From contig JAGFND010000007.1 in NCBI GenBank assembly GCA_021409285.1, forward strand, positions 1-32,000: 32,000 nt of DNA. The letters run 5' to 3'. Positions 1,440 through 20,187 of this stretch are shown here, piece after piece. The DNA is from Candidatus Methanoperedens sp. Its GTDB lineage: Archaea; Halobacteriota; Methanosarcinia; Methanosarcinales; Methanoperedenaceae. The notes beneath the pieces are model-generated. The model was not told the origin of the DNA, searched no databases, and worked only from the letters and a program-made list of their open reading frames with translations. The first letter of the stretch is position 1. The number at the start of each line of letters is the position of its first letter. Both the position numbers and the translations under genes were made by a program.

Positions 1440-4400
1440 ATGCGTGGAAAAGAAAGTCGTCTTGAAGAAGATCCCCTCTGGTATAAGGACGCTATAATAT
1501 ATGAGGTTCATGTGAGGAGCTTTTACGATAGCAACGGCGATGGGATAGGGGATTTTATCGGGCTTACCCAGAAGCTTGATTATCTTAAGGACCTTGGGAT
1601 AACAGCCATATGGATTCTTCCATTTTATCCGTCTCCCCTAAAAGATGACGGATATGATATATCTGATTATCTCGATATTCATCCTAATTACGGAACTCTG
1701 AAAGAATTCAAAAATTTCTTAAAGGAAGCCCATGATAGAGGAATAAGGGTTATAACAGAGCTCGTTTTAAACCATACCTCTGACCAGCATCCCTGGTTTA
1801 AGAGGGCAAGAGCAGCACCTCAAGGTTCTAGGTGGAGGGATTTCTATGTCTGGAGCGACACACCAAAAAAATATAAAGATACAAATATTATATTTAAGGA
1901 CTTTGAAAGCTCGAACTGGGCATGGGACTCTACCCAAATGGCTTACTATTGGCACCGCTTTTATTCACATCAGCCGGATTTGAACTATGATAACCCGCAT
2001 GTTGAGAAGGCTATGCTGAAGGTTATAGATTACTGGCTTAATATGGGGATTGATGGAATGCGCCTGGATGCAGTCCCCTATCTCTTTGAAAGAGAGGGAA
2101 CAAACTGTGAAAACCTGCCTGAAACCTATGAATTCCTGAGGAAGCTCAGGGCACACGTAAATGCTAAATATAAGAATAAGATGCTTCTTGCTGAGGCAAA
2201 CCAATGGCCTGAGGATGCTGTTGCCTACTTTGGAAACGATGATATATGCCATATGGCTTTCCACTTCCCATTGATGCCAAGAATATTCATGGCGCTTCGA
2301 ATGGAAGACAGGTTCCCTATAATTGATATTCTTGAACAGACCCCACAGATACCAGAATCCTGCCAGTGGGCGCTTTTCTTGAGAAATCATGACGAACTTA
2401 CTCTATCGAGGGTGACAGACGAAGAGAGGGAATATATGTTCCGCATGTACGCGCATGATTCTGTGGAGCGAATAAATCATGGTATACGTCGCCGCTTAGC
2501 TCCCCTCCTCGGAAACCACAGAAGAAGAATAGAACTTATGAAAAGCTTGCTTTTATCCCTGCCAGGGACGCCAGTAATTTATTACGGGGATGAGATTGGG
2601 ATGGGGGATAACATTTATCTGGGCGACAGAAATGGAGTGCGCACGCCAATGCAATGGAGTGCGGATAAAAACGGTGGCTTTTCTCGTGCCAACCCCCAAA
2701 AACTCTTCATATCTGTTATCATCGATCCTGAATATCATTACGAGGCAGTCAATGTAGAAGCTCAGCAGAATAACCCGCACTCGCTTCTGTGGTGGATGAA
2801 ACGTCTTATCTCCCTAAGGAAGCGGTTCAAAGCATTTGGGCGCGGAACTATGGAATTCCTGTATCCTGAGAACTGCAAGGTCATAGCCTTTATTCGACGC
2901 TATCAGGATGAATGCATATTAGTTATTGCCAACCTATCGCGTTTTATTCAATACGTTGAGCTTGATCTTTCAGCTTTTAAGGGAAGAACACCTGTTGAGC
3001 TTTTTAGCAGGACAGAAATCCCCCCAATTGGAGATAAGCCCTATTTTATCACTCTGGGACCTCATGATTTCTACTGGTTTTCCCTAGAGCTAAAGCAGGT
3101 CTGCGAACTTCGAATCCCCGAAATTGCGTCTATAGATGTAGCGGATGAGCGTATGTTTTTTGAAGAAACAAGAACAGAACTGGAAAGTATTTTGGCAGCC
3201 TACCTGCAGGCATCCTGCTGGCCAGGAAAGAAAGCAAGAACCATCAAATCGGCAAGTCTGCTTGAGGTTATTCCTGTACCCTATAATTCCTCACTATTCT
3301 ATATGACCATGATTCACATCGAATATATCGATGGCAGCCCTGAGATTTATAACCTGCCACTCACCATTGCCTTTGGGGAAAAAGCGTCGTATATGCAGGA
3401 TAAAGCCCCTCAAAGCATTATAGCTCGTGTAAACATGAGAGGCAAAGAAGGCGTTTTCTACGACGCCTCAGCAGACAGGGATTTCTGCTATGCATTAGTT
3501 GAGGCCATTTCCCACCGCCGTCGCTTCAAAGGAAAGAACGGCGAAGACATAGCCTCTCCTACCAGGGCGTTCCGGAAGCTCCTCGGGCCGACTGAAATCC
3601 TGCCTGAGCCTGAAATTCTTAAAGGAGAGTACAGTAATATTCTCATTGCATATGGGGATAAGCTTGTTTTGAAGTTTTTCCGCCGCATCGAAGAAGGGCA
3701 AAATCCCGATCTTGAGATAGGACTTTTTCTTACGGAAAGGAAATCTTTTGCCCATATCCCCCAAGTCGCAGGTGCTCTTGAGTACTACGGGTATAATGGC
3801 GAACCTGCTACTCTAGCTATCCTCACGGGCTATGTGCATGACCAGAGGAATGCATGGCAATACACTTTAGATGTACTTGGTCGCTACTTTGAGCTTGCTC
3901 TTGCAAAAAAAGGCGCAGAGATACCCTCAATCCATAAATCTCTGATCGATATGGTCGATGAAGATATTCCCATTCAAATCCAAGAGATGATGAACTCTTA
4001 CATAGAGACAGCGCGGCTTTTGGGACAGCGTACTGCAGAGCTTCACATTGAGCTGGCTTCAGATCCAGAAAACCCCAACTTTGCACCTGAAGCATTCTCT
4101 TCCCTATATCAGCGCTCAATCTACCATTCCATGCAGGGTATGGCAAAGCAGGTCTTTCAGCTTCTGCGCAAGCGAATGAATTGTCTTCCTGAAGCTGCGA
4201 GAAAGGATGCACAGCAGGTTCTTAACCTCGAAGGGGAGATTCTCAAGCGCTTCAGGTCAGTCATAGACATCGAGATAACAGCAATGCGGATACGATGCCA
4301 TGGCGACTACCATTTAGGGCAGGTTCTTCGAACTGGGAATGATTTTGTTATTATTGACTTCGAAGGAGAAACTGAAAAGGCTTTGAGTGAAAGAAAGTTG

Positions 4401-4831: not shown

Positions 4832-6475
4832 TTAATCCATTCCTTCCATTCCACCTGGTGGAATTCCTCCGGGTGGTACACCTCCTGCAGGTGCGGATTT
4901 GCTTGAGAGCACATCATCGATGCGCAGTATCATCGTAGCTGCCTCCGTGGCAGAATCGATAGCCTGTGTCTTTATTCTGAGAGGCTCAACCACGCCTTTT
5001 TCCCACATGTCCACGACTTTTCCAGTGAACACGTTGAGCCCTGCTGTCTTATTGCCCTTCTCATGCTGGCTTCGCATCTCCACAAGCATATCAATGGGGT
5101 CAAGACCAGCATTTTCAGCCAGAGTCCTGGGGATGATTTCAAGCGCCTCGGCAAATTTTGCGACAGCCAGCTGTTCCCTGCCTATTAATGTGGCTGAATA
5201 TTCTCGCAGGCGCAGAGCCAGTTCAACTTCTGGCGAACCGCCACCTGCTACAAGTGTCTCATCCTCGATCGCAACTCCAACAACACGCAATGCATCATGA
5301 AGCGCTCGCTCGGCTTCATCCACCACGTGCTCGGTCCCTCCACGAAGAATAATGGAGACTGCCTTGGGGTTATGGCACCCTGTAACATATGTCATTGCAT
5401 CCTCACCGATCTTTTTCTCCTCTACAATATCCGCTTTTCCAAGATCAGATCTGCTGATTTCCTTTAGACCAGTCTGTATCTTTGCACCTGTTGCACGTGC
5501 CAATTTTTCCATGTCGCTTTTCTTTACGCGCCTTGCTGCGTATATGCCTGCTTTTGCAAGATAATGCTGTGCAATGTCATCTATTCCCTTCTCAACAAAG
5601 ACCACATTTGCACCGCTGTCTATCACTTTGCTGATCATGTCATGCAACATCTGTTCTTCCTGGTCCAGAAATAACTGGAGCTGGTCAGGTGTTTTTATTG
5701 AGATCTCGGCTTTCACTTCTGTCTTTTTGATCTCAAGGGCCTCGGTGAGCAGAAGTATTCTGGCATCATGGACATTCTTTGGCATGTTCGTATGGACTCT
5801 TTCATTATCGATTACCATGCCTTCGATCAGCTCTGATGCTTCTACACTGGCGCCAACTTTCTTCTCAATTTTGATATCTTCAACATCTACTGTATATTTA
5901 CCATTCTCTTTATCAAGCACAGCTAATATGGCATTTACCGCAAGGTTGGAGAAAACATCCTTGGACGCTTCAGATCCTTTTCCGGTAATCGCAGTCACCG
6001 CGATTTTCAATAATAAATCCTTATCTTCAAGGGTCACTGGTTTTGCAAGGGTTTTAAGGATCTCTTTTGCTTTTGATGATGCAAGCCTGTATCCGCTGAC
6101 GATGACTGTGGGATGCACACCCTGCTCCAAGAGTTCTTCAGCATTCTTCAGGAATTCACCTGCAAGCACTGCTGCAGTTGTTGTGCCATCTCCCACCTCG
6201 TCATCCTGGGTCTTTGCGACTTCCACTATCATCTTGGCTGCCGGATGCTGGATGTCCATTGTCTGGAGAATGGTTGCACCATCATTCGTGATTACGATAT
6301 CCCCCACCGCGTCCACGAGCATTTTATCCATACCCTGCGGTCCCAGGGTCGTCCTGACCGCCGCTGCTACTGCCCTGGCAGCCATGATATTGTTATGCTG
6401 CGCTTCTTTTCCTTTTGTTCTTTGACTGCCTTCTCTTAGAATATAGATTGGCTGTCCTGCTAATTGTCCTGCCAT
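4832..6475 (-). CDS. ths: Thermosome subunit (group II chaperonin)
   Basis: Group II chaperonin blocks are present: [26 protein letters not shown], and a Gly/Pro/Met-rich C-terminal tail ending GGMEGMD. The track ORF starts at 6511. The ATG at 6475 ([13 protein letters not shown]...) has GGAGGT 5 nt upstream, so I trimmed the start to it. Confidence 0.95.
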
Positions 6476-9846: not shown

Positions 9847-11103
9847 TCAAGATGACAGCAATTTCCCCAGGAACTTCGTGTACATCACAAGATCCTCTAT
9901 CAATATGTTCTCGTCATCCGAATGCGTATTGCTCTGTGTTCTTCTTCCTATGCCGTAGCAGCACGCGGGCAGTCCCGTTACTTTTACCGCATAAGCCACA
10001 TCAAGGCTTCCCTGCGCACCTGCAAGGCTCACATCCCTTCCGGCCACATCATCCGCAACGCTTTTGACTTTATTCACCCATGGATGCTTCATATCAGTAA
10101 GCAATGGAGCATATATCTCATCGCAGCTCCATTTAAGGATAATATCAGGATGTTCTTTCCTGACTTTTGAAAGCGCATCAATGAATTCCTTTCTGACATC
10201 ATCGTAATTCTCTTCGGGGATGAATCTCCTGTCCCCTTTCAGCGTGCATCGATCAGGCACTACGTTCTGTTTTACTCCTCCGTTTATCATGGTTATATTC
10301 AGGACAGGCATCAGTGTCTTTATCCCGGTCATCCTGCTTATCGCCATACTTGCCGGTACTTTAGAACGCTTTTTCTCGATATTTGCCTTCAATTCCATTA
10401 ATTCATTCATGACCGGGATGGATTTCTCTATTGCGTTTATGCCAAGAAAACTGCTCCCGCTGTGATATGATCTCCCGATAACATCCACCTGCCAGTCCAC
10501 ATTCCCGTTCGAAGCTATAGTGATGTCATCGCTGTCCCCATCCATGCTCAGGAAATAATCCGCTTCAAGTTTACCCAGGTCAGCAAAATAACACAATCCC
10601 GAATAAGGCCCCATCTCTTCATCGGTTGTAAGAGCGATATTGAGGTTGAAATTCGGTTTGATATCAAGTTCTGACATCGCAGATAGCAATGTAATAAGAG
10701 CAGCAACGCCTCCCTTTGAATCAGCCACTCCGCGGCCGTATATACGCCCATCTTTAACAGTGCATTCAAAAGGCGGGACAGTCCAGTTCGGACTTGCGGG
10801 AACAACATCAAGATGCGTGTTGATCAGAAGGGTTTTTTCCGCCCCGACATCCAGTTTTGCCGATAAGTTCGCACGATCTCCCGTAAGATGCAAAAGACGG
10901 GGATTTTTCTTCTCGAATAATTCGCGAGGCATAACAATCGTCTCAACTTGAAACCCAAGTTCTTCAAGATTCCTTCCTGCAAGTTCCATGGCTCTCATGT
11001 AATTTTCACCCGGCGGCACAGCGGTCTGGATGCGTACAAGGCCATCAAGTGTTCTTATTGTCTCATCGGTTCTGGAGTCAAGATATTCTAATAACGCCTT
11101 CAT
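9847..11103 (-). CDS. M20-family metallopeptidase (ArgE/DapE-like deacylase)
   Basis: Metal-ligand blocks NTHLDVVP, GRGVADSKGG and TTDEEMG. The track ORF extends to 11172. MKALLEYLDS... (ATG at 11103) matches the usual family N-terminus and removes the overlap with the divergent GTPase gene. Confidence 0.85.
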   Translation of the reverse strand: MKALLEYLDSRTDETIRTLDGLVRIQTAVPPGENYMRAMELAGRNLEELGFQVETIVMPRELFEKKNPRLLHLTGDRANLSAKLDVGAEKTLLINTHLDVVPASPNWTVPPFECTVKDGRIYGRGVADSKGGVAALITLLSAMSELDIKPNFNLNIALTTDEEMGPYSGLCYFADLGKLEADYFLSMDGDSDDITIASNGNVDWQVDVIGRSYHSGSSFLGINAIEKSIPVMNELMELKANIEKKRSKVPASMAISRMTGIKTLMPVLNITMINGGVKQNVVPDRCTLKGDRRFIPEENYDDVRKEFIDALSKVRKEHPDIILKWSCDEIYAPLLTDMKHPWVNKVKSVADDVAGRDVSLAGAQGSLDVAYAVKVTGLPACCYGIGRRTQSNTHSDDENILIEDLVMYTKFLGKLLSS

Positions 11104-13182: not shown

Positions 13183-14139
13183 ATGTTTCCCAAAAAGAAT
13201 AGCACAGCTTTTCCATTGAAAAAGAAACTTGTATTGATCTCAATCACAATGTTTTTTCTTCTGGCCGCAATAGTCTCAGCGCAGAAGGACGTATCCTGTT
13301 ATCACTGCCATACAGGAGTTGTATCGGAATTCAGAAATAATATTCACTATCAGATGGGTTTCACATGTGAAAATTGCCACGGAGGAAATATTCAATCAAA
13401 TACCTCTGTTGTATCCGCGAATGTAATGTCAGGAGATTTTATCGGCCGCCCATCCAGGCAAGATATAACCAATGTCTGCTCAAAATGCCATGAAAAGGAA
13501 ACAAAGGATTACAAGCAGAGCATCCACTGGGAACAGATCGAAAAAGGTCATCTTGAAGCTGCGACCTGTACCGATTGCCATGGAATACATGAGATCCGCG
13601 CAGTATCTGATAACAAATCATCTTCAAACCATCAGAACAGTCCGGCCACATGTGCAAAATGCCATTCCAACAAAGAAATGATGAGCGCATGGTACTATGG
13701 TATAAAGACAGATCGGATGGACACATATAAAGAATCTTTCCACTGGAAAGCACTTGAGAACGGATATAATGTGGTGGCGACGTGCGCCGATTGTCATAAC
13801 AACCACAATACAAAATCACATGATGATCCGCAATCAAGCACATATCCGGACAACCTGCCAAAAACATGTGGAAAAGCGAACTGCCATCCTGATGTCAAAT
13901 TTGACGCAAAAATAGCAGCCGGCCTTGTCCATGATAAGGAATCACTGCATACGGGAGAACTCATATTCAACAAGACCGGAATCGACCCATTGATAAAGTC
14001 ATATTATCTTGGTCCTTTTGACCTTGCATACTGGATTGCATTATTTTTCAAGATATTGACAACAGGTGTAATAGGCGTCTTTACAGGTATGGTGCTTCTT
14101 GACCTGTTCTCGCATTTCAAGGTACAGAAGAGATGGTAG
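13183..14139 (+). CDS. Membrane-anchored multihaem c-type cytochrome (6 CXXCH + 1 CX4CH)
   Basis: Haem motifs CYHCH, CENCH, CSKCH, CTDCH, CAKCH, CADCH, plus CGKANCH. It has an N-terminal signal/anchor (LVLISITMFFLLAAIVSAQ) and a C-terminal TM helix (WIALFFKILTTGVIGVFTGMVLLDLF). GAGGT lies upstream of the ATG. Confidence 0.9.
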   Translation: MFPKKNSTAFPLKKKLVLISITMFFLLAAIVSAQKDVSCYHCHTGVVSEFRNNIHYQMGFTCENCHGGNIQSNTSVVSANVMSGDFIGRPSRQDITNVCSKCHEKETKDYKQSIHWEQIEKGHLEAATCTDCHGIHEIRAVSDNKSSSNHQNSPATCAKCHSNKEMMSAWYYGIKTDRMDTYKESFHWKALENGYNVVATCADCHNNHNTKSHDDPQSSTYPDNLPKTCGKANCHPDVKFDAKIAAGLVHDKESLHTGELIFNKTGIDPLIKSYYLGPFDLAYWIALFFKILTTGVIGVFTGMVLLDLFSHFKVQKRW

Positions 14140-14142
14140 ATC

Positions 14143-14892
14143 ATGTCCAGATCCAGGCAGATAGAAGTTACGATCACTGAGGAATTTTCAGGAGAAAATA
14201 CAATGAGTGAGGTTTATTTCAAGAGATTTACATTCAATCAACTCGTACAGCACTGGGTTATGATAGGCAGTTTCATGGTTCTTGTAGTAACTGGAATGCC
14301 GGTCAAATTCCCGGACACATGGTGGTCGCCTGTAATAATCAATATGGTTGGCGGATTTGAAATGAGGACGCAGTTGCACCATGCAGCAGGTATCGGAATG
14401 GTCATTCTTGGCCTGTGGCATGTCGGATATCATGTTTTCGTGGATAAGGAATCGCTGCTTGATCGTAAGGTGTGGCCAACAATAAAGGATGCAAAGGATT
14501 TCTGGCAGACAATATTATTCTACTTTAGAAAAGCGGAACATCCGAAATTCGGGAGATATTCATGGAAAGAGAAATTTGACTACTGGGGCGCTTTCTGGGG
14601 AATGGTAATGCTGTGCGTCACTGGACTCATAATGCTCTTCCCGTTCACTGCAATGAACTATATTCCTTATGCATATGTGCATCTTTCAACCATCATTCAT
14701 ACAGATGAAGCATTGCTTGCGACACTATTCATCTTCATAGTCCACTGGTGGAATGTCCATTACAGTCCGGAATCGTTCCCCATGTCAAAAACATGGCTTA
14801 CAGGGAACCTTTCAGAAACGCAGATGAAACATGAACATCCGCTTGAGTATGAAGAGGCAATGAGACAGATACGTGAAAAGGATGAACATTAA
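14143..14892 (+). CDS. b-type cytochrome membrane subunit (FdnI / Ni-Fe-hydrogenase cytochrome b-like)
   Basis: Four to five TM helices carry conserved-looking His residues (QHWVMIG; HHAAGIGMVILGLWHVGYH; IIHTDEALLATLFIFIVHWWNVH). The start lies 3 nt after the cytochrome c stop. The alternative start ATG 14203 has AGGAG 9 nt upstream. Confidence 0.7.
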   Translation: MSRSRQIEVTITEEFSGENTMSEVYFKRFTFNQLVQHWVMIGSFMVLVVTGMPVKFPDTWWSPVIINMVGGFEMRTQLHHAAGIGMVILGLWHVGYHVFVDKESLLDRKVWPTIKDAKDFWQTILFYFRKAEHPKFGRYSWKEKFDYWGAFWGMVMLCVTGLIMLFPFTAMNYIPYAYVHLSTIIHTDEALLATLFIFIVHWWNVHYSPESFPMSKTWLTGNLSETQMKHEHPLEYEEAMRQIREKDEH

Positions 14893-15419
14893 CACTTTCC
14901 GATCAGATGATTTTTCTTGAGGTTTTCAAATACCTCTGTTCCTTTTTTCGTCAGAATAAACTTCTTCCAGGTTCTTTTCCCGGGAGTCAGGGACTGAATC
15001 AGCCCGCGCTCTTCCAGTTCCCGCATTGCATAACTGATATTCTGCAATGATCTCTCAGTGGAATCTGCTATATCCGATGCCTGTATCATCCTCTTTTCGT
15101 GCATCATTTTTAATACGATCAGTCTTCTATCCACTCCCACAACCCACATTGATAGCCCATCTAAATTGACTACCCCCAGAATAAATAATTTAAACAGTTC
15201 TGTATTTGAATCATATGAGCATTCAAATTTATCCTGGATTTTTTCCTCTTGGGATTGCTGTTGCTGCAATGAAATACCTTCAAGGTCGACACAGGGCTTA
15301 TTAGTTTGAAATTCACTTTTTGAGGGGAGAGGCATTATGGCTACAATCGAAAATAAAACTAATGATAATATGACTACCAGGATTCGTAAGGTTTTATTAG
15401 GTCGTTCATTATCCTTCAT
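14889..15419 (-). CDS. Membrane-anchored winged-helix (MarR/ArsR-like) transcriptional regulator
   Basis: The C-terminal ~70 aa looks like a wHTH (MIQASDIADSTERSLQNISYAMRELEERGLIQSLTPGKRTWKKFILTKKGTEVFENL). There is an N-terminal TM helix (LRILVVILSLVLFSIVAIM), then a Q-rich, Cys-containing linker. Its stop codon overlaps the cytochrome b stop in a TTAA (14889-14892). Confidence 0.6.
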   Translation of the reverse strand: MKDNERPNKTLRILVVILSLVLFSIVAIMPLPSKSEFQTNKPCVDLEGISLQQQQSQEEKIQDKFECSYDSNTELFKLFILGVVNLDGLSMWVVGVDRRLIVLKMMHEKRMIQASDIADSTERSLQNISYAMRELEERGLIQSLTPGKRTWKKFILTKKGTEVFENLKKNHLIGKC

Positions 15420-15485
15420 ACTATTTACGTGAATTCTTTTTCCATCGTATTATGTTTTCCCCAATACAATCTAAATTCTTTTTAT

Positions 15486-15563
15486 CTTTAAAAATTAAAT
15501 TATCTATAATTAATAATAACTTATCACAAATTAGAAAGATTTATAATATTTAAGAATTATAGG
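15486..15563. promoter_or_regulatory. Divergent promoter cassette, copy A (between the wHTH regulator and small ORF 1)
   Basis: It contains TATAATTAATAA (15505-15516) and CACAAATTAGAAAGATTTATAA (15525-15546, a BRE/TATA-like AAAGATTTATAA). Both blocks recur at 15880-15891 and 15900-15921. Confidence 0.5.
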
Positions 15564-15618
15564 TTTATCAAACATGTTCATCGTAACATGGTGATTAATC
15601 TTTAAAAAAGGAGAATTT

Positions 15619-15729
15619 ATGGATAAATTGATTGAAATGCTCATTGGACCAGCAATGTTTTTAGTATTGGCAGGAATCTTCTATCTTGTGATAGAATTGA
15701 GAATTAGAATGCTCAAGTGTAGGGGTTAA
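15619..15729 (+). CDS. Small ORF 1: 36-aa single-TM peptide (MDKLIEMLIGPAMFLVLAGIFYLVIELRIRMLKCRG)
   Basis: Not in the track because it is under 60 aa. The ATG is preceded by TTTAAAAAAGGAG with 5-nt spacing. It lies ~70 nt downstream of the copy-A TATA-like box and has a hydrophobic core with a basic C-terminus. Confidence 0.35.
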   Translation: MDKLIEMLIGPAMFLVLAGIFYLVIELRIRMLKCRG

Positions 15730-15847
15730 TTATTCTTGCGATGAGGTTTTTAATTACCCCTGTTCCTTTTTTCGTGTATCGATTTTAATTTTTATCAGAA
15801 TACGGCCCAGCTCTGCTGCCGTTATAACGTTTGACCCTATCACCCAT
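15730..15847 (-). pseudogene. Decayed remnant of a second copy of the wHTH regulator gene
   Basis: 15733-15805 aligns with the 3' end of the intact regulator gene (14913-14958). There is an identical 16-mer CTGTTCCTTTTTTCGT at 14936-14951 and 15760-15775, followed by CAGAATA after a 20-nt insertion. The minus-strand translation gives ...RAGPYSDKN*NRYTKKGTGVIKNL versus ...ERGLIQSL..ILTKKGTEVFENL, with an in-frame stop and deletions. Confidence 0.5.
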
Positions 15848-15851
15848 TCTT

Positions 15852-15940
15852 CCTTTAAATTTAAAAGAATAAAATTATATATAATTAATAACAAGTTAGC
15901 ACAAATTAGAAAGATTTATAACATTTAGTAATTATTGACC
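15852..15940 (+). promoter_or_regulatory. Promoter cassette, copy B (drives small ORF 2 / mtrD-like operon)
   Basis: Shares a 22-nt identical core CACAAATTAGAAAGATTTATAA (15900-15921) and TATAATTAATAA (15880-15891) with copy A. The same TTTAAAAAAGGAG ribosome-binding context follows at 15986-15998. Confidence 0.5.
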
Positions 15941-16007
15941 ATTGAACAGCCATCAATAATGTTGATTCTCTATGATGATAACTGTTTAAAAAAGGAGGAA
16001 ACATTAC

Positions 16008-16166
16008 ATGAAATCTGAAATTGTATCCATTTCAAATCAAAATTTAAGAGCAGCCAAATCAGACCTTATGAATGGTATCGATAGTTTCTCACTGCTTTCA
16101 AGCATCTGGACTGAAATCAGGAACGACAGAGACAAATCAAAAATAAGGAAAAAAGGAGTGAATTGA
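16008..16166 (+). CDS. Small ORF 2: 52-aa soluble basic-tailed protein (MKSEIVSISNQNLRAAKSDLMNGIDSFSLLSSIWTEIRNDRDKSKIRKKGVN)
   Basis: Not in the track. AGGAGG lies 9 nt upstream of the ATG. Its stop at 16164-16166 is 1 nt before the ATG of the MtrD-like gene, and its own 3' end supplies the AAGGAG Shine-Dalgarno for that gene. Confidence 0.45.
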   Translation: MKSEIVSISNQNLRAAKSDLMNGIDSFSLLSSIWTEIRNDRDKSKIRKKGVN

Positions 16167-16167
16167 A

Positions 16168-16899
16168 ATGGTGGATATTTTACTACTTGATCCGACGACA
16201 TTAACAAATATACTTTTAATAGCCATCAGCGGCACTCTTATTTGCCTGGGTGTGCATTTTGTGCCGGTCGGGGGAGCCCCAGCGGCAATGGCACAGGCGA
16301 CCGGTATAGGAACAGGTACTGTGGAACTTGCGGCAGGTTCGGGACTTGTGGGTTTGATAACATCGGCTTATATGTATGCAAATGCTCCCAATCCAACAAT
16401 GGCTTTAGTACTGGCTGCAGGAGCTACAGGTTCAATGATAATGATAGCAAGCACAATGCTTGCAGGAAATTTGGTTTATGGTTATGGCGTAGGGGTGCCT
16501 TTCGCTTCTGCCCAGATTAAAAAAGACCCCATTACAGGCGAACGCCAGGATACTTATATGTCAAAAGGAACACAGGGTCAGGGAATTCCAACCATATGTT
16601 ATGTAAGCGGCATTATCGGGGCGGCGCTGGGCGGAACAGGAGGTGCTCTTATTTATTATGTTCTGATAGGTATATACGGCCAGTTGATAAGTACAACAAG
16701 TGCAGTTGCAGTTGCGGGCGTATTCACAATGGGTGTTTTCTATGTAAATGCCGTTGTTCCGTCTTATGGTGTGGGCGGAACAATAGAAGGATTCCATGAC
16801 CCCAAGTTCAGGCGGGTTCTACCAAAAGATGCTTTCACAAGTTTTCTTGTAAGTCTTGTTTTAGGTATCGTGGCAATACTGATAACAGTAGGGATGTAG
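16168..16899 (+). CDS. mtrD: MtrD-family integral membrane protein (tetrahydromethanopterin S-methyltransferase subunit D paralogue), encoded outside an mtr operon
   Basis: 243 aa, Gly/Ala-rich and polytopic. The blocks HFVPVGGAPAAMAQATGIGTGT, GQGIPTICYVSGIIGAALGG and GGTIEGFHDPKF are the ones I recognise from MtrD proteins. No mtrE/C/B/A/F/G/H flank it. Confidence 0.8.
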   Translation: MVDILLLDPTTLTNILLIAISGTLICLGVHFVPVGGAPAAMAQATGIGTGTVELAAGSGLVGLITSAYMYANAPNPTMALVLAAGATGSMIMIASTMLAGNLVYGYGVGVPFASAQIKKDPITGERQDTYMSKGTQGQGIPTICYVSGIIGAALGGTGGALIYYVLIGIYGQLISTTSAVAVAGVFTMGVFYVNAVVPSYGVGGTIEGFHDPKFRRVLPKDAFTSFLVSLVLGIVAILITVGM

Positions 16900-16926: not shown

Positions 16927-16989
16927 ATGGTTATAGCTATAATCGCATTCGATAAGGGATCAAAATATGTTCTAAGGAGGTTACGATGA
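16927..16989 (+). CDS. Possible 20-codon micro-ORF (MVIAIIAFDKGSKYVLRRLR) coupled to the downstream transporter gene
   Basis: GGAG lies 5 nt upstream of ATG 16927. The stop TGA overlaps the ATG of the next gene (ATGA at 16986-16989). This could be coincidental, because the same stretch carries the AGGAGG SD of the downstream gene. Confidence 0.2.
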   Translation: MVIAIIAFDKGSKYVLRRLR

Positions 16990-18122
16990 GCCTTGAGTTT
17001 AGTTCAATGGTGGCAGGAGGATTAGGTATAATTTTCATTATCGTCTTGCTGGGTCCTTTTTTGACCAAAAAAATTGAACATAACCTTGAGGTATTCCTTT
17101 TCTCAATGGGCATACTGGCGGTGACGGTTAACTCTATTTTTCTGAAAGTATCATCCGAAGCTGGAGTAGCAGCAGAAGAGACTTTGCCAAACTGGAACTT
17201 GCATTTGATAGAAAAAGCACTTGTCGACCCTATCGAGATTTCGCTTGCCGTATTATTCGCAGGACTTGTTTTCCACTATGGGCGAGGGCACATCAGAAAA
17301 TTAATGGAAAAAATATTGGCCAGGATACCGCTAAAGATAGTAGTCTTTGCAGTTATCGCATTACTTGGCCTTCTCTCAAGCGTAATCACAGCCATCATCG
17401 CTGCGCTTTTGCTTGTTGAGATTGTCAGCGCATTGAGACTTGACCGCAAGACCATGGTGAACCTGACGATAATAGCATGCTTTGCCATTGGTCTTGGAGC
17501 AGCGCTTACTCCAATCGGTGAGCCTCTTTCCACGATAGTGATAAAGACAAAGATGAACGAGAGCTTCTTTTATCTTGTTGATCTGTTGGGCATATATATC
17601 ATACCCGGAGTGCTGGCATTTGGTATCATAGGTGTTTTCTTTGCTTATAGAAAAGAAATAAAAGCGCCTGCGGGAGAGATCGAAGCGACAGATGAAGGTC
17701 ATGAGAGCATAAACGATGTGCTGATCAGGGCAGCGAAAGTATATGTGTTCGTGATGGCACTTGTGCTTCTTGGAACAGGTTTTACGCCCATCATTGAGTG
17801 GTATGTTATAAAAATGTCCGGAGAAGCCCTTTACTGGGTGAATATGGTTTCAGCCATCCTTGATAATGCAACTCTTGCGGCTGCAGAGGTCGATCCTTCG
17901 ATGATCGTGCCGGGTCTGATTGATCCTGCTATCAAGATCAAGAGCGTTCTTATGGGATTGCTTGTATCAGGCGGTATGCTAATACCTGGCAATATACCAA
18001 ATATTATCTCAGCTAACAAGCTTGGGATCACAAGCAAGGAATGGGCAAGACTTGGAGTTCCTTTGGGTCTTGTAGCAATGCTGGTATTCTTTATAATTCT
18101 CTATGCGCCGAACTATATCTAA
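16986..18122 (+). CDS. Polytopic membrane protein, DUF1646-like predicted cation transporter
   Basis: 378 aa with ~10-11 hydrophobic helices. AGGAGG lies 6 nt upstream. Size, architecture and blocks such as LIPGNIPNIISANKLGITSKEWARLGVPLGL recall the archaeal DUF1646 family. That family call is from memory and needs an HMM check. Confidence 0.55.
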   Translation: MSLEFSSMVAGGLGIIFIIVLLGPFLTKKIEHNLEVFLFSMGILAVTVNSIFLKVSSEAGVAAEETLPNWNLHLIEKALVDPIEISLAVLFAGLVFHYGRGHIRKLMEKILARIPLKIVVFAVIALLGLLSSVITAIIAALLLVEIVSALRLDRKTMVNLTIIACFAIGLGAALTPIGEPLSTIVIKTKMNESFFYLVDLLGIYIIPGVLAFGIIGVFFAYRKEIKAPAGEIEATDEGHESINDVLIRAAKVYVFVMALVLLGTGFTPIIEWYVIKMSGEALYWVNMVSAILDNATLAAAEVDPSMIVPGLIDPAIKIKSVLMGLLVSGGMLIPGNIPNIISANKLGITSKEWARLGVPLGLVAMLVFFIILYAPNYI

Positions 18123-18150
18123 CAATTTATTAAACAATAATGAGAAAATA

Positions 18151-18294
18151 ATGATATGTAAACATTGTGGGCACACTGTTAGTATGGCAGGAGGCCTGTG
18201 CTTTCATACAGAGAATGGTTTCTCGCAAACCTGCAAGATATGTGGTTGCAGGTTTCCGGAACAAGATGAGGATCACATGGTGAACAATAAATGA
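18151..18294 (+). CDS. 47-aa zinc-ribbon peptide (MICKHCGHTVSMAGGLCFHTENGFSQTCKICGCRFPEQDEDHMVNNK)
   Basis: CxxC (C3, C6) and CxxC (C28, C31) pairs plus an acidic tail. I chose the ATG at 18151 within the 63-aa track ORF. It lies 28 nt after the transporter stop on the same strand. Confidence 0.5.
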   Translation: MICKHCGHTVSMAGGLCFHTENGFSQTCKICGCRFPEQDEDHMVNNK

Positions 18295-18310
18295 AAATAA
18301 AATTAATCAG

Positions 18311-18414
18311 TTATATAATATTTTTGTTTCTTCTAAAGGTTAGGCATCATAAAATTTTTTCAATTGAAAAAATTACTCCTAAACAATTGGTGTCTAACCG
18401 GAATTTGAAATAAC
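18311..18414 (+). promoter_or_regulatory. Repeated TATA + conserved-stem leader element, copy 1 (upstream of the tandem USP gene)
   Basis: Block A is TTATATAATATTTTTGTTTCTTCTAAAGGTTAGGCATCAT. Block B is ACTCCTAAACAATTGGTGTCTAACCGGAATTTGAAATAA. GGTTAGGCA (18338-18346) can pair with TGTCTAACC (18391-18399), giving 9 bp with one G-U. The element is near-identical to 19389-19494. Confidence 0.5.
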
Positions 18415-18504
18415 GATATTTCCTGATATTAAAATTGTGCAAATTTTAAAACCAGTAGATTGAAATACAAGAAATTAGTAAATAACGAGATATGGGAGGA
18501 TATA

Positions 18505-19377
18505 ATGTTCAATAAAGTTCTATTTCCGACAGATTTTTCAGCGAATGCGCATAAAACTCTTGAGTGTATTGGTGAGATTCCCGGTGTAAAAGAGGTAGTG
18601 CTTTTGCATGTTGTTGCAGTCCCCTCGGGTGTTTTCGATTCAAAGCATGGGTGGATTCAGGGACCGCATGTAGAGGATGCAAAGATTCGCCTGGAAGAAC
18701 ATAGAAAACATCTTGAAAGTCTTGGATTGAATGTCACTACAAAAGTAGATATAATAACGACTGGTGATATATCACAGGTCATCCTGGGGATTGCCGATAA
18801 AGAAAACGTTTCTTTAATCATAATGAACTCTCACGGAAAAAGCCTGATTAAAGGCCTGCTTCTTGGAAGTGTCCCACTCGATGTAATACGCCATGCAAAA
18901 ACAGATGTTTTGCTAATGCGTTATAAATTAGCGGAAAGTCTTGAAGGTGAAAAGTCAGAAAAGTTTTGTGAGAAGATTTTTTCAAAAGTGCTTCACCCAA
19001 CTGATTTCTCAGAGCCTGCCGGAATGGCGTTATCCTTTGTAAAAAATCTGCAGGGAATTGAAGAAATCGGACTGGTGCATGTGGTTACTAAAGGTGAGAC
19101 AGATGATGAGATAAAGGCCAATGTACAGGAGGCAAAAAAGAAGCTTGAGGATATCAAGCTTGAACTTAGCGGTGCAGATTTTAAAGTGAAAGATTACGTC
19201 CGCGTAGGAAGCCCGGCAGAGGAAATTTGCTCTGTGGCCGAGGATGAAGATGCCTCGATGATAGCGATGAGTTCTCATGGAAAAGGTTGGCTCAAAGAAT
19301 TATTATTAGGTGACACGACCTTCGATGTGGTCAAAAATACAAAGATACCTGTTCTGGTTGTGAGAGCTAAGAAATGA
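18505..19377 (+). CDS. Tandem universal stress protein (two UspA domains)
   Basis: Two repeats of the USP pattern are present (KVLFPTDFS...LLHVV...NSHGKSLIKGLLLGSVPLDVIRHAKTDVLLMR and KVLHPTDFS...LVHVV...SSHGKGWLKELLLGDTTFDVVKNTKIPVLVVR). The ATG at 18505 is preceded by GGGAGG. The track start at 18460 is an upstream TTG. Confidence 0.9.
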   Translation: MFNKVLFPTDFSANAHKTLECIGEIPGVKEVVLLHVVAVPSGVFDSKHGWIQGPHVEDAKIRLEEHRKHLESLGLNVTTKVDIITTGDISQVILGIADKENVSLIIMNSHGKSLIKGLLLGSVPLDVIRHAKTDVLLMRYKLAESLEGEKSEKFCEKIFSKVLHPTDFSEPAGMALSFVKNLQGIEEIGLVHVVTKGETDDEIKANVQEAKKKLEDIKLELSGADFKVKDYVRVGSPAEEICSVAEDEDASMIAMSSHGKGWLKELLLGDTTFDVVKNTKIPVLVVRAKK

Positions 19378-19388
19378 GATAATGGCTA

Positions 19389-19494
19389 TTATATAATATT
19401 TTTATTTTTTCTAAAGGTTAGGCATCATTAAGATTAAGTCGAGTGCCAACAAACTCTTAAACAATTATGGTGTCTAACCGGAATTTAAATAAAA
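19389..19494 (+). promoter_or_regulatory. Repeated TATA + conserved-stem leader element, copy 2 (abuts the start of the DUF1614-like gene)
   Basis: It has the same two blocks as copy 1, with 2 substitutions in block A and, in block B, 2 substitutions and a 2-nt AT insertion. The stem arms are at 19416-19424 and 19471-19479. The ~25-nt segment between the blocks is unrelated in the two copies. Confidence 0.5.
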
Positions 19495-20187
19495 ATGTTT
19501 GCAAAGTTGGTTGAATTGTCTTATCAAATATTTCCAAGGATCAGAACCTCAGTTATTGCTTTCTCGTTTTTAATCCTCGTGTTGGTTTTCATATTTATAT
19601 GCTTGAATATCTCAGGCACTGCTTTCAAGAAACTGGGATTTCCTCCAGAATATTCGGTCTATTTTCTTTTTTTGTCACTGCCTTGCAGTTACTTAAACAT
19701 TCCCATTAAAAAGGTCAGGTCGCGCGTCTCCGTGATTTCAGACAAAGCAAGTTATACTCTAAAGTCGGGTTTGTCAGCTTCATCTCTTAAAATGTACAGT
19801 ACAATAGCTATTAACATAGGAGGCGCAGTTATTCCGATAATAATGTCAGTATTTCTGTCCACAAAGGCAAATCTGGTTGAAATCTTATCAGGAATTCTTG
19901 TCATGACGATAATTATTCATAAGATTGCTCGACCTGTGAAAGGTTCTGGGATCTTGATCCATGCGTTGCTTCCTCCGTTTCTGACGGCTTTTATTGCAAT
20001 TATTATCTCTCCTCAAAATGCACCTGTTATCGCCTACATCTCAGGCACATTTGGCTGCATTCTTGGCATCGACATACTCAACCTGAAAAAAATCCCCGAC
20101 CTTGGCGTGCCATTTGTTTCTATTGGCGGAGCAGGGACATTTGATGCAATATTCCTGACTGGTATAATATCTGTGCTCCTGGCATAG
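19495..20187 (+). CDS. Integral membrane protein, DUF1614-like
   Basis: 230 aa with ~6 hydrophobic segments. Blocks such as INIGGAVIPIIMS and GGAGTFDAIFLTGII recall the archaeal DUF1614 family, a call made from memory. There is no SD, and the ATG directly follows the conserved leader. Confidence 0.5.
   Translation: MFAKLVELSYQIFPRIRTSVIAFSFLILVLVFIFICLNISGTAFKKLGFPPEYSVYFLFLSLPCSYLNIPIKKVRSRVSVISDKASYTLKSGLSASSLKMYSTIAINIGGAVIPIIMSVFLSTKANLVEILSGILVMTIIIHKIARPVKGSGILIHALLPPFLTAFIAIIISPQNAPVIAYISGTFGCILGIDILNLKKIPDLGVPFVSIGGAGTFDAIFLTGIISVLLA

Follow-up and report, generated by a model that had tools for sequence, protein, structure and literature searches.

Two nearly identical stretches of DNA flank a universal stress protein (USP) gene in Candidatus Methanoperedens, and the question they raise is whether they are promoters with a regulatory leader, as an earlier note had proposed, or signals of another kind. 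In the window (the whole stretch of DNA analysed, 32 kb), pairwise alignment of the two copies gave two near-identical blocks around a dissimilar centre, and a repeat finder returned matches of 43 nt with 93% identity (18311-18353 and 19389-19431) and of 22 nt with 95% identity (18388-18409 and 19468-19489), just where the note had placed them. For each 18-mer core the window contains exactly two occurrences, compared to 0.02 to 0.05 expected by chance. A covariance model (R1) recognized both as copies of one element and, scanned with filters off, found no third copy in the 32 kb. The two copies are therefore real, but the repeated unit is larger than had been described (Table 1).

TABLE 1 Features of the two element copies and of their surroundings in the window
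Feature	Position	Strand	Remarks
Zinc-ribbon-like ORF, 63 aa	18103..18294	+	Overlaps the end of the DUF1646 gene; member of the same-strand string
Small membrane ORF, remnant of its start (ATGAAAATAAAATTAATCAG)	18292..18310	+	From comparison with L001 593-742 and other loci
Copy 1, whole element	18318..18419	+	R1 87.7 bits, E 9e-19; zinc-ribbon ORF and mini-ORF remnant upstream, USP gene downstream
Copy 1, U-rich left arm ATATTTTTGTTT	18318..18329	+	Pairs with right arm
T-tracts of left arms	18321-18329 (copy 1), 19399-19410 (copy 2)	+	
Copy 1, core 5' side	18331..18337	+	UUCU (strand of the 4-bp helix), then 3-nt AAA bulge
Copy 1, inner stem, 5' arm GGTTAGGCATCA	18338..18349	+	Former stop TAG at 18341-18343; pairs with 18388-18399
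Copy 1, loop, 38 nt	18350..18387	+	Own A/U mini-hairpin and motif ACTCCTAAAC; same type as in the USP-linked orthologue L009
Copy 1, inner stem, 3' arm TGGTGTCTAACC	18388..18399	+	
Copy 1, 3' side	18400..18419	+	GGAA, UUU bulge (18404-18406), G18407, A-rich right arm AAATAACGATAT
Tandem USP gene	18505..19377	+	3' of copy 1; SD GGGAGG; Pfam PF00582, E 1e-45
Copy 2, whole element	19396..19498	+	R1 92.8 bits, E 5e-20
Copy 2, core 5' side	19409..19415	+	UUCU, then AAA bulge
Copy 2, inner stem, 5' arm GGTTAGGCATCAT	19416..19428	+	Pairs with 19467-19479
Copy 2, loop, 38 nt	19429..19466	+	Same type as in the DUF1614-linked orthologues L107 and L109
Copy 2, inner stem, 3' arm ATGGTGTCTAACC	19467..19479	+	
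Copy 2, 3' side	19480..19498	+	GGAA, UUU bulge (19484-19486), A-rich right arm AAATAAAAATGT
DUF1614 membrane protein gene	19495..20187	+	3' of copy 2; Pfam PF07758, E 8e-48; annotated start

Both copies belong to a same-strand string that runs from an MtrD-like gene through DUF1646 and a zinc-ribbon-like ORF (without a Pfam match) to the first element, USP, the second element and DUF1614. Copy 2 begins 18 nt past the USP stop codon and overlaps the annotated start of the DUF1614 gene, whose ATG (19495) falls within its right arm. The earlier note took this ATG as a start codon 15 nt after the stem with no Shine-Dalgarno sequence (SD); the lack of an SD held, but a TTG is likelier than the ATG. 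Homologues of 226 aa imply a start at TTG 19507, and both the L107 start, read from the sequence, and the called start of L003 align with TTG 19516. To judge from these homologues, one of the two TTG codons is probably the true start, and the annotated one is probably mis-set here.

Further copies were searched for with a covariance model, as the note had suggested, and were found in relatives and in low-GC contigs that resemble Borgs, with the pairing preserved. Of the 15 Methanoperedens genome loci with a close DUF1646 orthologue, 14 retain the chromosomal copy in its place; there was no match in the fifteenth (L012), in more than 60 loci with DUF1646 from Methanothrix and others, or in loci of a paralogue with 64% identity, except for L023. 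IMG/VR viral contigs scanned with the conserved flanks also gave 0 matches. Copies were far more numerous in the low-GC contigs (30.5 to 36% GC) than in Methanoperedens chromosomes, about one per 4 kb, or one per three to four genes (every third or fourth intergenic gap). All of these ca. 30 copies are intergenic and on the gene strand, and they sit in the longer gaps, the short element-free gaps looking operon-internal. Every called gene (122/122) lies on one strand (loci L115, L118, L119 and L122 to L124, where L118 and L119 overlap), tandem repeats occur in intergenic gaps, and most products have no Pfam family. Borgs have a GC content of about 32 to 35%, near-perfect single-strand coding, pervasive tandem repeats and mostly hypothetical proteins (PMC11208441, PMC9879509). 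By these features the contigs that carry most of the copies look like Borgs; a search of them for a Borg marker gene or terminal repeat found neither. The element does stand before the USP and DUF1614 genes, as the note had said, but the co-regulation of these two genes proposed with it is not supported, since in these contigs it precedes many unrelated genes.

As RNA of the plus strand, the elements (about 60 to 120 nt) fold into a long interrupted hairpin. From 5' to 3', a U-rich left arm is followed by one unpaired base, UUCU, an AAA bulge, a closing G-C pair, the inner stem, a free loop, the 3' arm of the stem, GGAA, a 3-nt UUU bulge and an A-rich right arm, the pairing partner of the left one (the terminal arms, ATATYTTTATTT and AAATAAAGATAT, are complementary). 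The 4-bp helix, UUCU/GGAA or UUCC/GGAA, is present in all copies, with 98% of cells paired. Among 46 distinct copies the AAA bulge hardly varies; it always has 3 nt and reads UAA in one. The closing G-C pair is likewise invariant or near-invariant. The inner stem (7 to 15 bp) is free in sequence but keeps its pairing, and the loop (13 to 46 nt, longer in some Borg-like copies) has no sequence conserved throughout the family. Of the two window copies, the first has an inner stem of 12 bp and the second one of 13 bp, each with two G-U pairs; the pairing reported earlier is real, but longer than the 9 bp with one G-U that had been counted.

Covariation was found within the inner stem. In a set of 36 distinct hairpins, both sides of this stem vary at positions 8-14, with compensatory examples such as CATCA/TGGTG, TAG/CTA, TATGG/CCATA, TACGGC/GCCGTA and TGTTGTC/GACAGCA, and such changes were also found at orthologous positions (L108 versus L113, L099 versus L110). 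Some stems differ wholly between identical flanks (ACCAAGAG.../...CTCTTGGT, ATTAAGT/ACTTAAT). A MAFFT alignment showed both-side changes in 7 of 14 inner pairs with 93.7% of cells paired. When copies were chosen without a sequence pattern, 12 of the 14 pairs changed on both sides, none of 500 shuffles reached the observed values, and sliding the partners lowered pairing from 94% to 40 to 48%. The outer A/U helix (ca. 12 bp) is 89 to 94% paired, with weak covariation. Since compensatory changes run across 46 distinct copies and the wobble pairs fit only the plus strand, the stem structure is real, and the note's view that conserved flanks around a variable centre reflect a maintained structure was borne out.

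The strand bias was consistent. Inner stems contain 39 G-U pairs versus 1 A-C, the plus strand folds better in 36 of 39 copies (mean of -27.9 versus -22.3 kcal/mol for the reverse), and the model scores 70 to 106 bits on the plus strand versus 19 to 37 on the other. Within the window, the corresponding energies were -26.7 versus -12.9 kcal/mol for copy 1 and -28.9 versus -18.8 kcal/mol for copy 2. In at least 20 related loci the sequence before the stem belongs to the gene of a membrane mini-protein of 43 to 50 aa, and because its stop codon, TAG, lies within the stem, the mini-ORF mRNA must enter the hairpin; some Borg-like copies begin 0 to 14 nt past the upstream stop codon. From this arrangement we infer that the element is co-transcribed with the same-strand genes that flank it. 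No transcript-derived contig with the window USP gene was identified (the matches were one NCBI genome contig and one Logan contig). Overall, the copies very probably form a family of selected, plus-strand, co-transcribed RNA hairpins.

In this genome, the mini-protein gene has been deleted. The remnant of its start and the retained 3' end no longer share a reading frame, which indicates an internal deletion of ca. 100 nt. The left-arm bases (ATATTTTTGTTT in copy 1) encode in relatives the part ...N-I-F-I of the mini-protein, and TTATATAA, the supposed promoter, corresponds to its Leu-Tyr-Asn codons, with variation of a codon-like kind at that position (LLYN, LIYN, LVNN, LLYS, LIFK).

Several known motifs were also considered and rejected by eye. 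A K-turn would require tandem G-A pairs, and none was seen beside either bulge. The boxes of a C/D-box sRNA (UGAUGA and CUGA) are ca. 140 nt apart, falling within the mini-ORF and the leader of the USP gene, and Borg-like copies do not have them. Masking of the USP ribosome-binding site by ACUCCU of the loop, acting as an anti-SD, would involve at most 5 bp at a distance of 100 nt, without conservation in Borg-like copies. The loops are longer than a cruciform or supercoiling switch would allow.

Several explanations place the signal in transcription itself. In the earlier model, TTATATAA is the promoter, transcription starts at GGTTAGGCA (18338-18343 and 19416-19421), and the hairpin closes a riboswitch-like or protein-bound leader that co-regulates USP and DUF1614. 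Both window copies do retain TTATATAA 19 nt before the stem despite the loss of the mini-ORF, the 5' edge of TTATATAA coincides exactly with the deletion junction in copy 1, the distance of TTATATAA to the stem base suits an archaeal start site, and many chromosomal relatives have an A/T-rich, TATA-like sequence there. We nevertheless consider this model very improbable, and TTATATAA was rejected as a promoter of the family, given its codon nature in relatives and its absence at a fixed distance from the Borg-like copies. The 20 nt that separate it from the stem are a conserved part of the element and pair with the 3' flank, so that an RNA starting at the stem would miss half of the element; while the folds are better than those of shuffled sequences for an RNA with a complete 5' arm (z = -4.7 for copy 1 and -3.8 for copy 2), they are not when the RNA begins 4 nt into it (z only -1.4 and -1.3). 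In L006, moreover, a 165-nt insertion splits the sequence at the TTATATAA position from the hairpin. A riboswitch is unlikely, as the only unpaired interior is the variable loop, in which a conserved ligand core is lacking. The note knew of no matching riboswitch class, and the cmscan check agrees: Rfam 15 gave no match across the whole window at gathering thresholds, and a search of 18200-19600 with E up to 10 returned chance-level hits only (E 1.6 to 10; 12 to 18 bits against cut-offs of 41 to 229). The DUF1646 gene and its cation-transport neighbours recall the bacterial Na+ riboswitch, which is the DUF1646 motif RNA, but the element lies downstream of DUF1646 and has neither a conserved unpaired core nor a cmscan match up to E 10. 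A promoter with a distal operator, which the note had also offered, is not supported either, as a variable spacing of the arms and a co-varying inner stem do not suit a protein operator. To an operator in the form of an inverted repeat GGTTAGG...CCTAACC bound by a dimeric transcription factor we give hardly any probability. The repeat adjoins a TATA-like box and its sequence is conserved in chromosomal copies, but the arms are 13 to 46 nt apart, are swapped for unrelated sequences that still pair, and confine their G-T pairs to one strand. A DNA-level stop/start module has more in its favour and is still unlikely. Here the T-rich left arm would terminate the upstream RNA, since oligo-T halts the archaeal RNA polymerase, the BRE/TATA promoter of the next gene would be CGGAA-TTTAAATA in the right arm, and the hairpin would be secondary, e.g., a 3'-end cap for read-through RNA. 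Nearly every copy has T5AT6 or T5AT3 on the gene strand, and most have CGGAA with TTTAAATA, TTTTAATA or ATTAAATA, a TATA-like box with a purine-rich BRE (the right arm of copy 1, AAATAACGATAT, resembles one when read as DNA); a left arm that reads as a textbook termination signal in many copies, next to such a look-alike, makes the module plausible for at least some of them. The preference of the Borg-like elements for longer gaps agrees with it, as do several start codons 38 to 41 nt from the C of CGGAA, close to leaderless spacing, and the L014 half-copy, in which just the 3' arm and the TATA-like arm remain. Some 28 nt separate the centre of the TATA-like box from the conserved DUF1614 start (TTG 19516), and the lack of an SD at this start fits a leaderless mRNA from this arm better than an internal cistron. 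Borgs, which encode neither RNA polymerase nor TBP, must use host signals (PMC9879509). A promoter in the right arm would predict starts ca. 23 nt after TTTGAAATA/TTTAAATA, at about 18432 and 19514. A literature search on start sites or promoters of Methanoperedens found nothing. However, in 8 of 18 Borg-like copies the predicted start site lies past the beginning of a canonical SD, the ATG is at most 36 nt from the C of CGGAA in 3 of 19, and that of L107 is just 18 nt past the box, so the right arm was rejected as a general promoter. Two copies (L115 10612 and L108 1440) lack the box yet have the left arm, core and hairpin; the T-tract of the relatives, being inside the mini-ORF coding sequence and upstream of its stop, can be no efficient terminator there; and some genes downstream of an element leave no space for a promoter of their own. 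Runs of at least five T on the gene strand of Borg-like contigs are not confined to elements, so that they do not decide for or against a terminator. Ordinary terminators and promoters do not have a co-varying hairpin between them or complementary arms, and the module leaves unexplained the compensatory changes, the plus-strand wobble bias and the 12-nt arm complementarity.

Two other explanations regard the element as mobile or as folded DNA. REP/BIME sequences of enterobacteria and Correia elements of Neisseria are dispersed short imperfect palindromes, co-transcribed with the genes around them, whose mRNA hairpins affect processing, stability or local promoters, and the element is likewise a dispersed, short, imperfect intergenic palindrome. 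It could be a selfish inverted repeat of this or the MITE kind that multiplied in Borg-like DNA, entered the Methanoperedens chromosome a single time and does nothing for the host, a history that its discrete unit of ca. 60 to 120 bp, its sharp ATAT...ATAT ends, its complementary terminal arms, its density in Borg-like contigs and a different MITE-like insertion beside the element in L006 would suit. Of the usual hallmarks, terminal inverted repeats are present, but target-site duplication is not evident at the flanks, the copies are not alike along their full length, and all have a single orientation relative to genes. Centres that differ wholly between flanks that do not are the opposite of neutral decay after transposition, orthologous copies maintain pairing by compensatory changes, the chromosomal locus is stably kept, and no transposase or RAYT-type enzyme was found, the window encoding no transposase or integrase; these traits, and its archaeal or Borg-like setting, set it apart from REP/BIME and Correia, and we regard a selfish origin without host function as very unlikely. 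A folded single-stranded DNA site, for attC-like recombination or as a replication or priming signal, with an orientation that follows replication and, in Borgs, the genes, is highly improbable. The element resembles integron attC sites in its conserved ends, a variable paired centre, bulged bases, strand-specific folding and a post-ORF position in one-directional arrays, and GTTAGGC/GCCTAAC fits the attC core consensus GTTRRRY/RYYYAAC. The core boxes, however, stand in the opposite order around the loop (GTTAGGC ... GCCTAAC versus RYYYAAC ... GTTRRRY) and are missing from most Borg-like copies, the window has no integrase, elements number one per three to four genes rather than one per cassette, and the chromosomal locus shows stable synteny from species to species; box order and the missing integrase led us to reject attC.

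The reading we favour, tentatively, is that the element is a processing or stability punctuation, an intercistronic hairpin which, transcribed together with the same-strand genes, would act post-transcriptionally by marking a point of cutting or stabilisation in a multi-gene RNA. Hairpins that separate cistrons by processing are known from the RNase III sites of phage T7 early RNA, and tRNAs punctuate mitochondrial transcripts. Like them, the element is a structured signal that recurs in long one-directional units, shortly before the ribosome-binding site of the next gene; its processing is putative. To our knowledge, most archaea lack RNase III.

Under this punctuation reading, a candidate enzyme is the tRNA-splicing endonuclease EndA, which may excise the variable hairpin at a bulge-helix-bulge core, so that the leader left to the following gene would be short, A-rich and without structure; religation by RtcB would be a further guess. 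EndA comes to mind because in the invariant core a 3-nt bulge on one strand is separated by 4 bp from a 3-nt bulge on the other, with the topology of pre-tRNA, as in archaeal bulge-helix-bulge sites, but we think it unlikely that the element is its substrate. The central helix has exactly 4 bp in all copies, with the 3-nt bulge of the 5' strand at its inner end and helices on both sides (7 to 15 bp inner with covariation, ca. 12 bp outer). At the 3' bulge the agreement is partial. In copy 1, G18407 is able to pair with C18330, which makes a canonical bulge-helix-bulge possible with a 7-bp outer helix, and L008 similarly has an unopposed 3-nt bulge, its C paired with an inserted G; where a U is found instead (copy 2 and most Borg-like copies) the motif is possible with three A-U pairs. 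The bulge is non-canonical in 21 of the 39 copies of alignment A2, mostly chromosomal, where the C faces UUU in a 1x3 loop, and several copies have four unpaired bases (TTTT or TTTG variants). Euryarchaeal endonucleases reportedly require strict bulges (PMC7714728). Moreover, the sequence of the 4-bp helix and of the flanks is conserved even though EndA needs none of it, which suggests another, sequence-specific partner.

The closest known system is the leader of Haloferax volcanii HVO_1309, with a 46-nt bulge-helix-bulge intron that recombinant endonuclease cuts and for which circular RNA was found (PMC7714728). It too is a small non-coding hairpin of an mRNA with a 4-bp helix and a 3-nt bulge per strand in the same topology, and the cbf5 mRNA intron of Crenarchaeota is also a bulge-helix-bulge cut by the tRNA-splicing endonuclease (PMC7714728). 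In the shortest copies of the element, excision would yield a piece of ca. 45 nt, against the 46 nt of HVO_1309. Unlike these two, the element is multi-copy, with conserved flanks and helix sequence, its cleavage is a prediction, and in 21 of 39 A2 copies its 3' bulge is opposed by an unpaired C or is four bases long. That the copies are mini-introns or punctuation hairpins bounded by bulge-helix-bulge motifs, at which the host endonuclease cuts the long transcripts of Borgs and of the host DUF1646-USP-DUF1614 string and frees small, possibly circular hairpin RNAs with a variable loop, together with an A-rich leader for the gene that follows, is a little less likely still than an EndA substrate as such.

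The element is new to Rfam. The searched literature on Borgs and related Methanoperedens elements held no mention of a promoter, terminator, hairpin or palindrome, and a search on archaeal palindromic intergenic elements and MITEs gave a general MITE survey only. For annotation, the TATA-like sequences of this element should not be called promoters without transcript data. Borg gene regulation has been described as unclear (PMC9879509), and one structured, strand-specific element common to the stress and cation-transport locus of Methanoperedens and to the gene gaps of Borg-like contigs offers a handle on expression via the host machinery. If the bulge-helix-bulge reading were true, the role of the tRNA-splicing endonuclease would extend from two isolated mRNA cases to a genome-wide one, and if the mini-intron reading were true, host RNA processing would be a main control point of Borg gene expression.

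The window is a segment of a Candidatus Methanoperedens chromosome that carries ordinary housekeeping genes and encodes no integrase or transposase, and the repeats sit within one same-strand gene string (see the table). Pairwise alignment of the two stretches gave two near-identical blocks around a dissimilar centre, just as the earlier note had described. The repeat finder resolved them as 43 nt of 93% identity (18311-18353 / 19389-19431) and 22 nt of 95% identity (18388-18409 / 19468-19489), and each 18-mer core occurs exactly twice in the 32 kb (0.02 to 0.05 times in shuffles). The stem proposed in that note does pair, but it is longer than the 9 bp with one G-U that had been read: GGTTAGGCATCA(T) with (A)TGGTGTCTAACC gives a stem of 12 bp (copy 1) or 13 bp (copy 2), each with two G-U pairs. 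The predicted fold was better than that of shuffled sequence (z of -4.7 and -3.8 for the two copies) only when the RNA included the whole 5' arm. The Rfam search gave no match for the element, in agreement with the earlier note, which assigned it to no riboswitch class, and the covariance model found no copy in the window beyond these two.

Features of the locus and of the two element copies (window coordinates)
Feature	Position	Strand	Remark
MtrD-like gene	16168-16899	same as string	
DUF1646 gene	16986-18122	same as string	
Zinc-ribbon-like ORF	18103-18294		followed by copy 1
Element, copy 1	18318-18419		covariance-model coordinates
Tandem USP gene	18505-19377		between copy 1 and copy 2
Element, copy 2	19396-19498		covariance-model coordinates
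DUF1614 gene	ends 20187		3' of copy 2
AAA bulge	18335-18337; 19413-19415	+	5' side of core
UUU bulge	18404-18406; 19484-19486	+	3' side of core
Loop motif ACUCCUA(U/A)AAC	18373-18384; 19453-19464		also in most chromosomal copies (related loci L001-L026 and L087-L111)

Several other features of the neighborhood were observed. The MtrD homologue (a methyltransferase complex subunit) is stand-alone and paired with the DUF1646 membrane protein, a pairing conserved across Methanoperedens. Since bacterial DUF1646 genes are known targets of a Na+ riboswitch, this cluster may, by analogy, handle Na+. Genes for a multihaem c-type cytochrome and, after it, a cytochrome b (13183-14892) lie just upstream of the locus, and a divergent MarR/winged-helix regulator is encoded on the minus strand at 14889-15419. 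A second, unrelated duplicated upstream region (15478-15560 / 15853-15935, 83 nt, 83% identity), with shorter blocks at 14918-14951 / 15742-15775 and 15588-15613 / 15972-15997, precedes two small ORFs (15620-15730 and 16008-16166), which in turn lie shortly before the MtrD-like gene; a TATA-like TTTATAATATTTAAG/TTTATAACATTTAG is present in each copy, and AAAAGGAG forms its end, before the ATG. Gene content between the element and DUF1614 varies by species, from USP, a small ORF and Na_Ca_ex (locus L001) or USP, CNNM, CBS and Na_Ca_ex (L003) to nothing (L010), the window having USP and a second element. The 3' end of the L003 Na_Ca_ex gene (TTTTAAACAACCGGAAATTTAG) is similar to the TAAACAA...CCGGAATTTA of the element, which hints at a recombination junction.

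The comparison with related genomes by covariance model, which the earlier note had recommended, found further copies whose pairing is kept by compensatory changes. Two sources, a set of 80 genome loci with the DUF1646 gene as anchor and a metagenome scan whose pattern left stem positions 7 to 14 free, yielded 36 distinct hairpins. Their stem base (GGTTAGG/CCTAACC) is constant, which is partly forced by the way they were selected, as GGTTAG and ACC were required by the metagenome pattern and the genome-locus filter tolerated no more than one mismatch to AAAGGTTAG. Stem positions 8 to 14 vary on both sides (CATCA/TGGTG, TAG/CTA, TATGG/CCATA, TACGGC/GCCGTA, TGTTGTC/GACAGCA), and two-sided changes are also found at orthologous positions (L108 versus L113 and L099 versus L110). 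The MAFFT alignment has 93.7% of its cells paired and shows two-sided change at 7 of the 14 inner pairs. The covariance model built from it retrieved copies with unchanged flanks and stems unlike GGTTAGG (ACCAAGAG.../...CTCTTGGT, ATTAAGT/ACTTAAT, GTCAAGT/ACTTGGC), raising the number of pairs changed on both sides to 12 of 14 in an alignment that is fitted to the model and with which the raw sequences agree. None of 500 shuffles reached the observed pairing values, and sliding the partner lowered pairing from 94% to 40-48%. Judged by these substitutions, the hairpin is under selection. The inner stems hold 39 G-U pairs versus one A-C, and in 36 of 39 copies the plus strand gives a more stable fold than the reverse (mean of -27.9 versus -22.3 kcal/mol); the element is a feature of the RNA strand. 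Arm-to-arm distance ranges from 13 to 46 nt. Combined with the arm swaps, this excludes a dimeric operator and makes a cruciform unlikely, and it does not fit the distal operator of the earlier note.

Around the stem-loop, 20 nt on the 5' side and 19 nt on the 3' side are conserved (ATATTTTTATTT(C/T)TTCTAAA / stem-loop / GGAATTTAAATAAAGATAT), with UUCUAAAG...CGGAAUUU as the core, and these two ends are complementary to each other. The predicted RNA consists, from the outside inward, of a 12-bp A/U outer helix, an unpaired C or U opposite UUU, a 4-bp UUCU/GGAA helix, a 3-nt AAA bulge, an invariant G-C pair and, innermost, a stem and loop that vary. Among 46 distinct copies there is little or no change in the 4-bp helix, the AAA bulge or the closing pair, and the outer helix pairs in 89-94% of cells with little covariation. 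Towards its 3' end, the loop of most chromosomal copies, whatever its length, has a conserved motif rich in pyrimidines (see the table), and some Borg-like copies have AUUACCUC in its place. Both window copies share a derived C-to-T change in the 3' arm (TGTCTAACC, giving a G-U pair; 18391-18399 and 19471-19479), where L009, the closest orthologue of copy 1, and L107 and L109, those closest to copy 2, have TGCCTAACC, yet their loops place them in different lineages, USP linked and DUF1614 linked. This looks like gene conversion between the two copies.

In chromosomes of Methanoperedens, copies turned up at the DUF1646 locus alone, after a small ORF and before the USP or DUF1614 gene, and in 14 of 15 genome loci with a close DUF1646 orthologue (L012 gave no match). 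It was not found at Methanothrix DUF1646 loci or, by a scan with the conserved flanks, in IMG/VR. In locus L014 (ca. 780-850), a half-copy (3' loop part, 3' arm, CCGGAGTTTAAATAAAGATAT) nearly identical to the full copy of the same genome follows a second zinc-ribbon ORF, ca. 900 nt upstream of the MtrD-like gene. The element is frequent in contigs of 30.5-36% GC, where 122 of 122 genes are on one strand (six loci with called genes, of which L118 and L119 overlap), tandem repeats occur between genes and the majority of proteins belong to no family. Borgs are likewise characterized by a GC content of 32-35%, single-strand coding and pervasive tandem repeats (PMC11208441, PMC9879509), and other Methanoperedens elements have ca. 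40% GC (PMC13444090). As protein searches of these contigs matched no Borg marker gene or Borg record, we call them only Borg-like. Their ca. 118 kb contain about 30 copies, all intergenic and all on the gene strand. The tandem repeats of L118 are perfect (3596-3711, 9914-10000, 6105-6187), and one, of two units (GATAAAATATTTGATAAAATATTAT), lies inside the loop of an element. Apparent hairpin-less relatives (TTTTATTTTTTATAAAGATGATAT; bare TTTTTTATTTTTTT immediately 3' of a stop codon) occur in Borg-like contigs (L108, 1290-1315 and 1765-1790).

In related loci, TTATATAATATTTTTATTTCTTCTAAAGGTTAG is the 3' end of this small ORF, which encodes 43-50 aa ending in ...MIGWL(L/I)YNIFISSKG* and has its TAG stop codon in the 5' arm of the stem. 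Because its 16 versions differ by indels that keep the frame and by conservative substitutions in a hydrophobic stretch, the product is, by its pattern of change, a real membrane mini-protein; it has no Pfam family. The mini-protein (…LGIG…MIGWLLYNIFISSKG) lies 3' of DUF1646 in nearly all relatives and is deleted here, with the overlapping element kept (18292-18343; L001 593-742). In copy 1 its first 19 nt (18292-18310) are joined out of frame to its last 33 nt, and in copy 2 only about 13 codons' worth is left. One Methanoperedens genome (L006, 2636-2800) has a ca. 165-nt MITE-like insertion between the stop codon and the hairpin, with a long internal inverted repeat (CGCAAAGAACGCAAAGTTCGCAAAG...) and AAGGTTAGG duplicated on its flanks.

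The earlier note had read a TATA promoter followed by a riboswitch-like leader. Although TTATATAA is retained in both window copies and the deletion junction of copy 1 falls at its edge, this is very improbable, since in relatives the supposed box is the L-Y-N codons of the mini-ORF and varies as codons do (LLYN, LIYN, LVNN, LLYS, LIFK, LLYK); that reading was largely wrong as a whole, although the structure itself is real. As DNA, the element resembles an archaeal terminator in its left arm (T5AT3-6) and a BRE/TATA promoter in its right arm (CGGAA-TTTAAATA), and a stop/start module in which the former terminates and the latter serves the next gene would explain why DUF1614 lacks a Shine-Dalgarno (SD) sequence in the window, as the middle of the TATA-like box is ca. 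28 nt away from the conserved DUF1614 start, TTG 19516. We give such a module some weight but consider it unlikely, as many copies do not fit it: of 18 Borg-like copies, 8 have a canonical SD that starts upstream of the start site predicted from the box; at most 36 nt separate the ATG from the C of CGGAA in 3 of 19 copies, and in L107 the ATG is 18 nt after the box; some copies lack the box and keep left arm, core and hairpin; and the T-tract of relatives is inside the mini-ORF coding sequence. Several elements begin 0-14 nt 3' of the upstream stop codon, where a further promoter would not fit. Translation of the next gene must thus in many cases use RNA that reads through the element. Evidence against a selfish MITE comes from centres that are unrelated although the flanks are fixed, from compensatory change in orthologous copies, from the single orientation and from the lack of target duplication, and an attC-like single-strand DNA site is disfavoured by inverted box order, spacing that does not fit and the lack of an integrase.

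As for the DUF1614 start (19495-19518), the annotated ATG (19495) lies within the right arm of copy 2. The absence of an SD mentioned in the earlier note holds, but the start that it placed close after the stem probably does not: the 226-aa homologues imply TTG 19507, and TTG 19516 aligns with the DUF1614 ATG of L107 (read from sequence) and L003 (called gene). The product is 194 aa as called by NCBI versus 230 aa in the Logan record.

From the comparative data we conclude that the element is a putative co-transcribed intercistronic RNA hairpin, which may mark a point of RNA processing or stability. Its invariant core is arranged like a bulge-helix-bulge, the type of site that the archaeal tRNA-splicing endonuclease (EndA) recognizes: a bulge of 3 nt on either strand, a helix of 4 bp between them and, as pre-tRNA has it, the bulge of the 5' strand on the inner side. 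Copy 1 can form a canonical version (C18330-G18407 pair, 7-bp outer helix) and copy 2 one with three A-U pairs. A precedent for such a site within an mRNA leader is the 46-nt intron of Haloferax HVO_1309, which is cleaved in vitro and has been detected as a circular RNA (PMC7714728). Against this reading, a C stands opposite UUU in 21 of the 39 copies of alignment A2 (mostly chromosomal), some variants have four unpaired bases at the 3' bulge, and euryarchaeal splicing endonucleases are reported to be strict (PMC7714728). Conservation of the core sequence beyond what EndA needs suggests a sequence-specific partner, and cleavage by EndA is a tentative, rather doubtful prediction of the model.

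With no Rfam match and no mention in the searched papers on Borgs and related Methanoperedens elements, this is an undescribed family of a known general kind, that of intergenic hairpin elements in mRNA. Its distribution is unusual, with one host locus and many Borg-like sites, and the bulge-helix-bulge-like core makes a specific mechanism testable.
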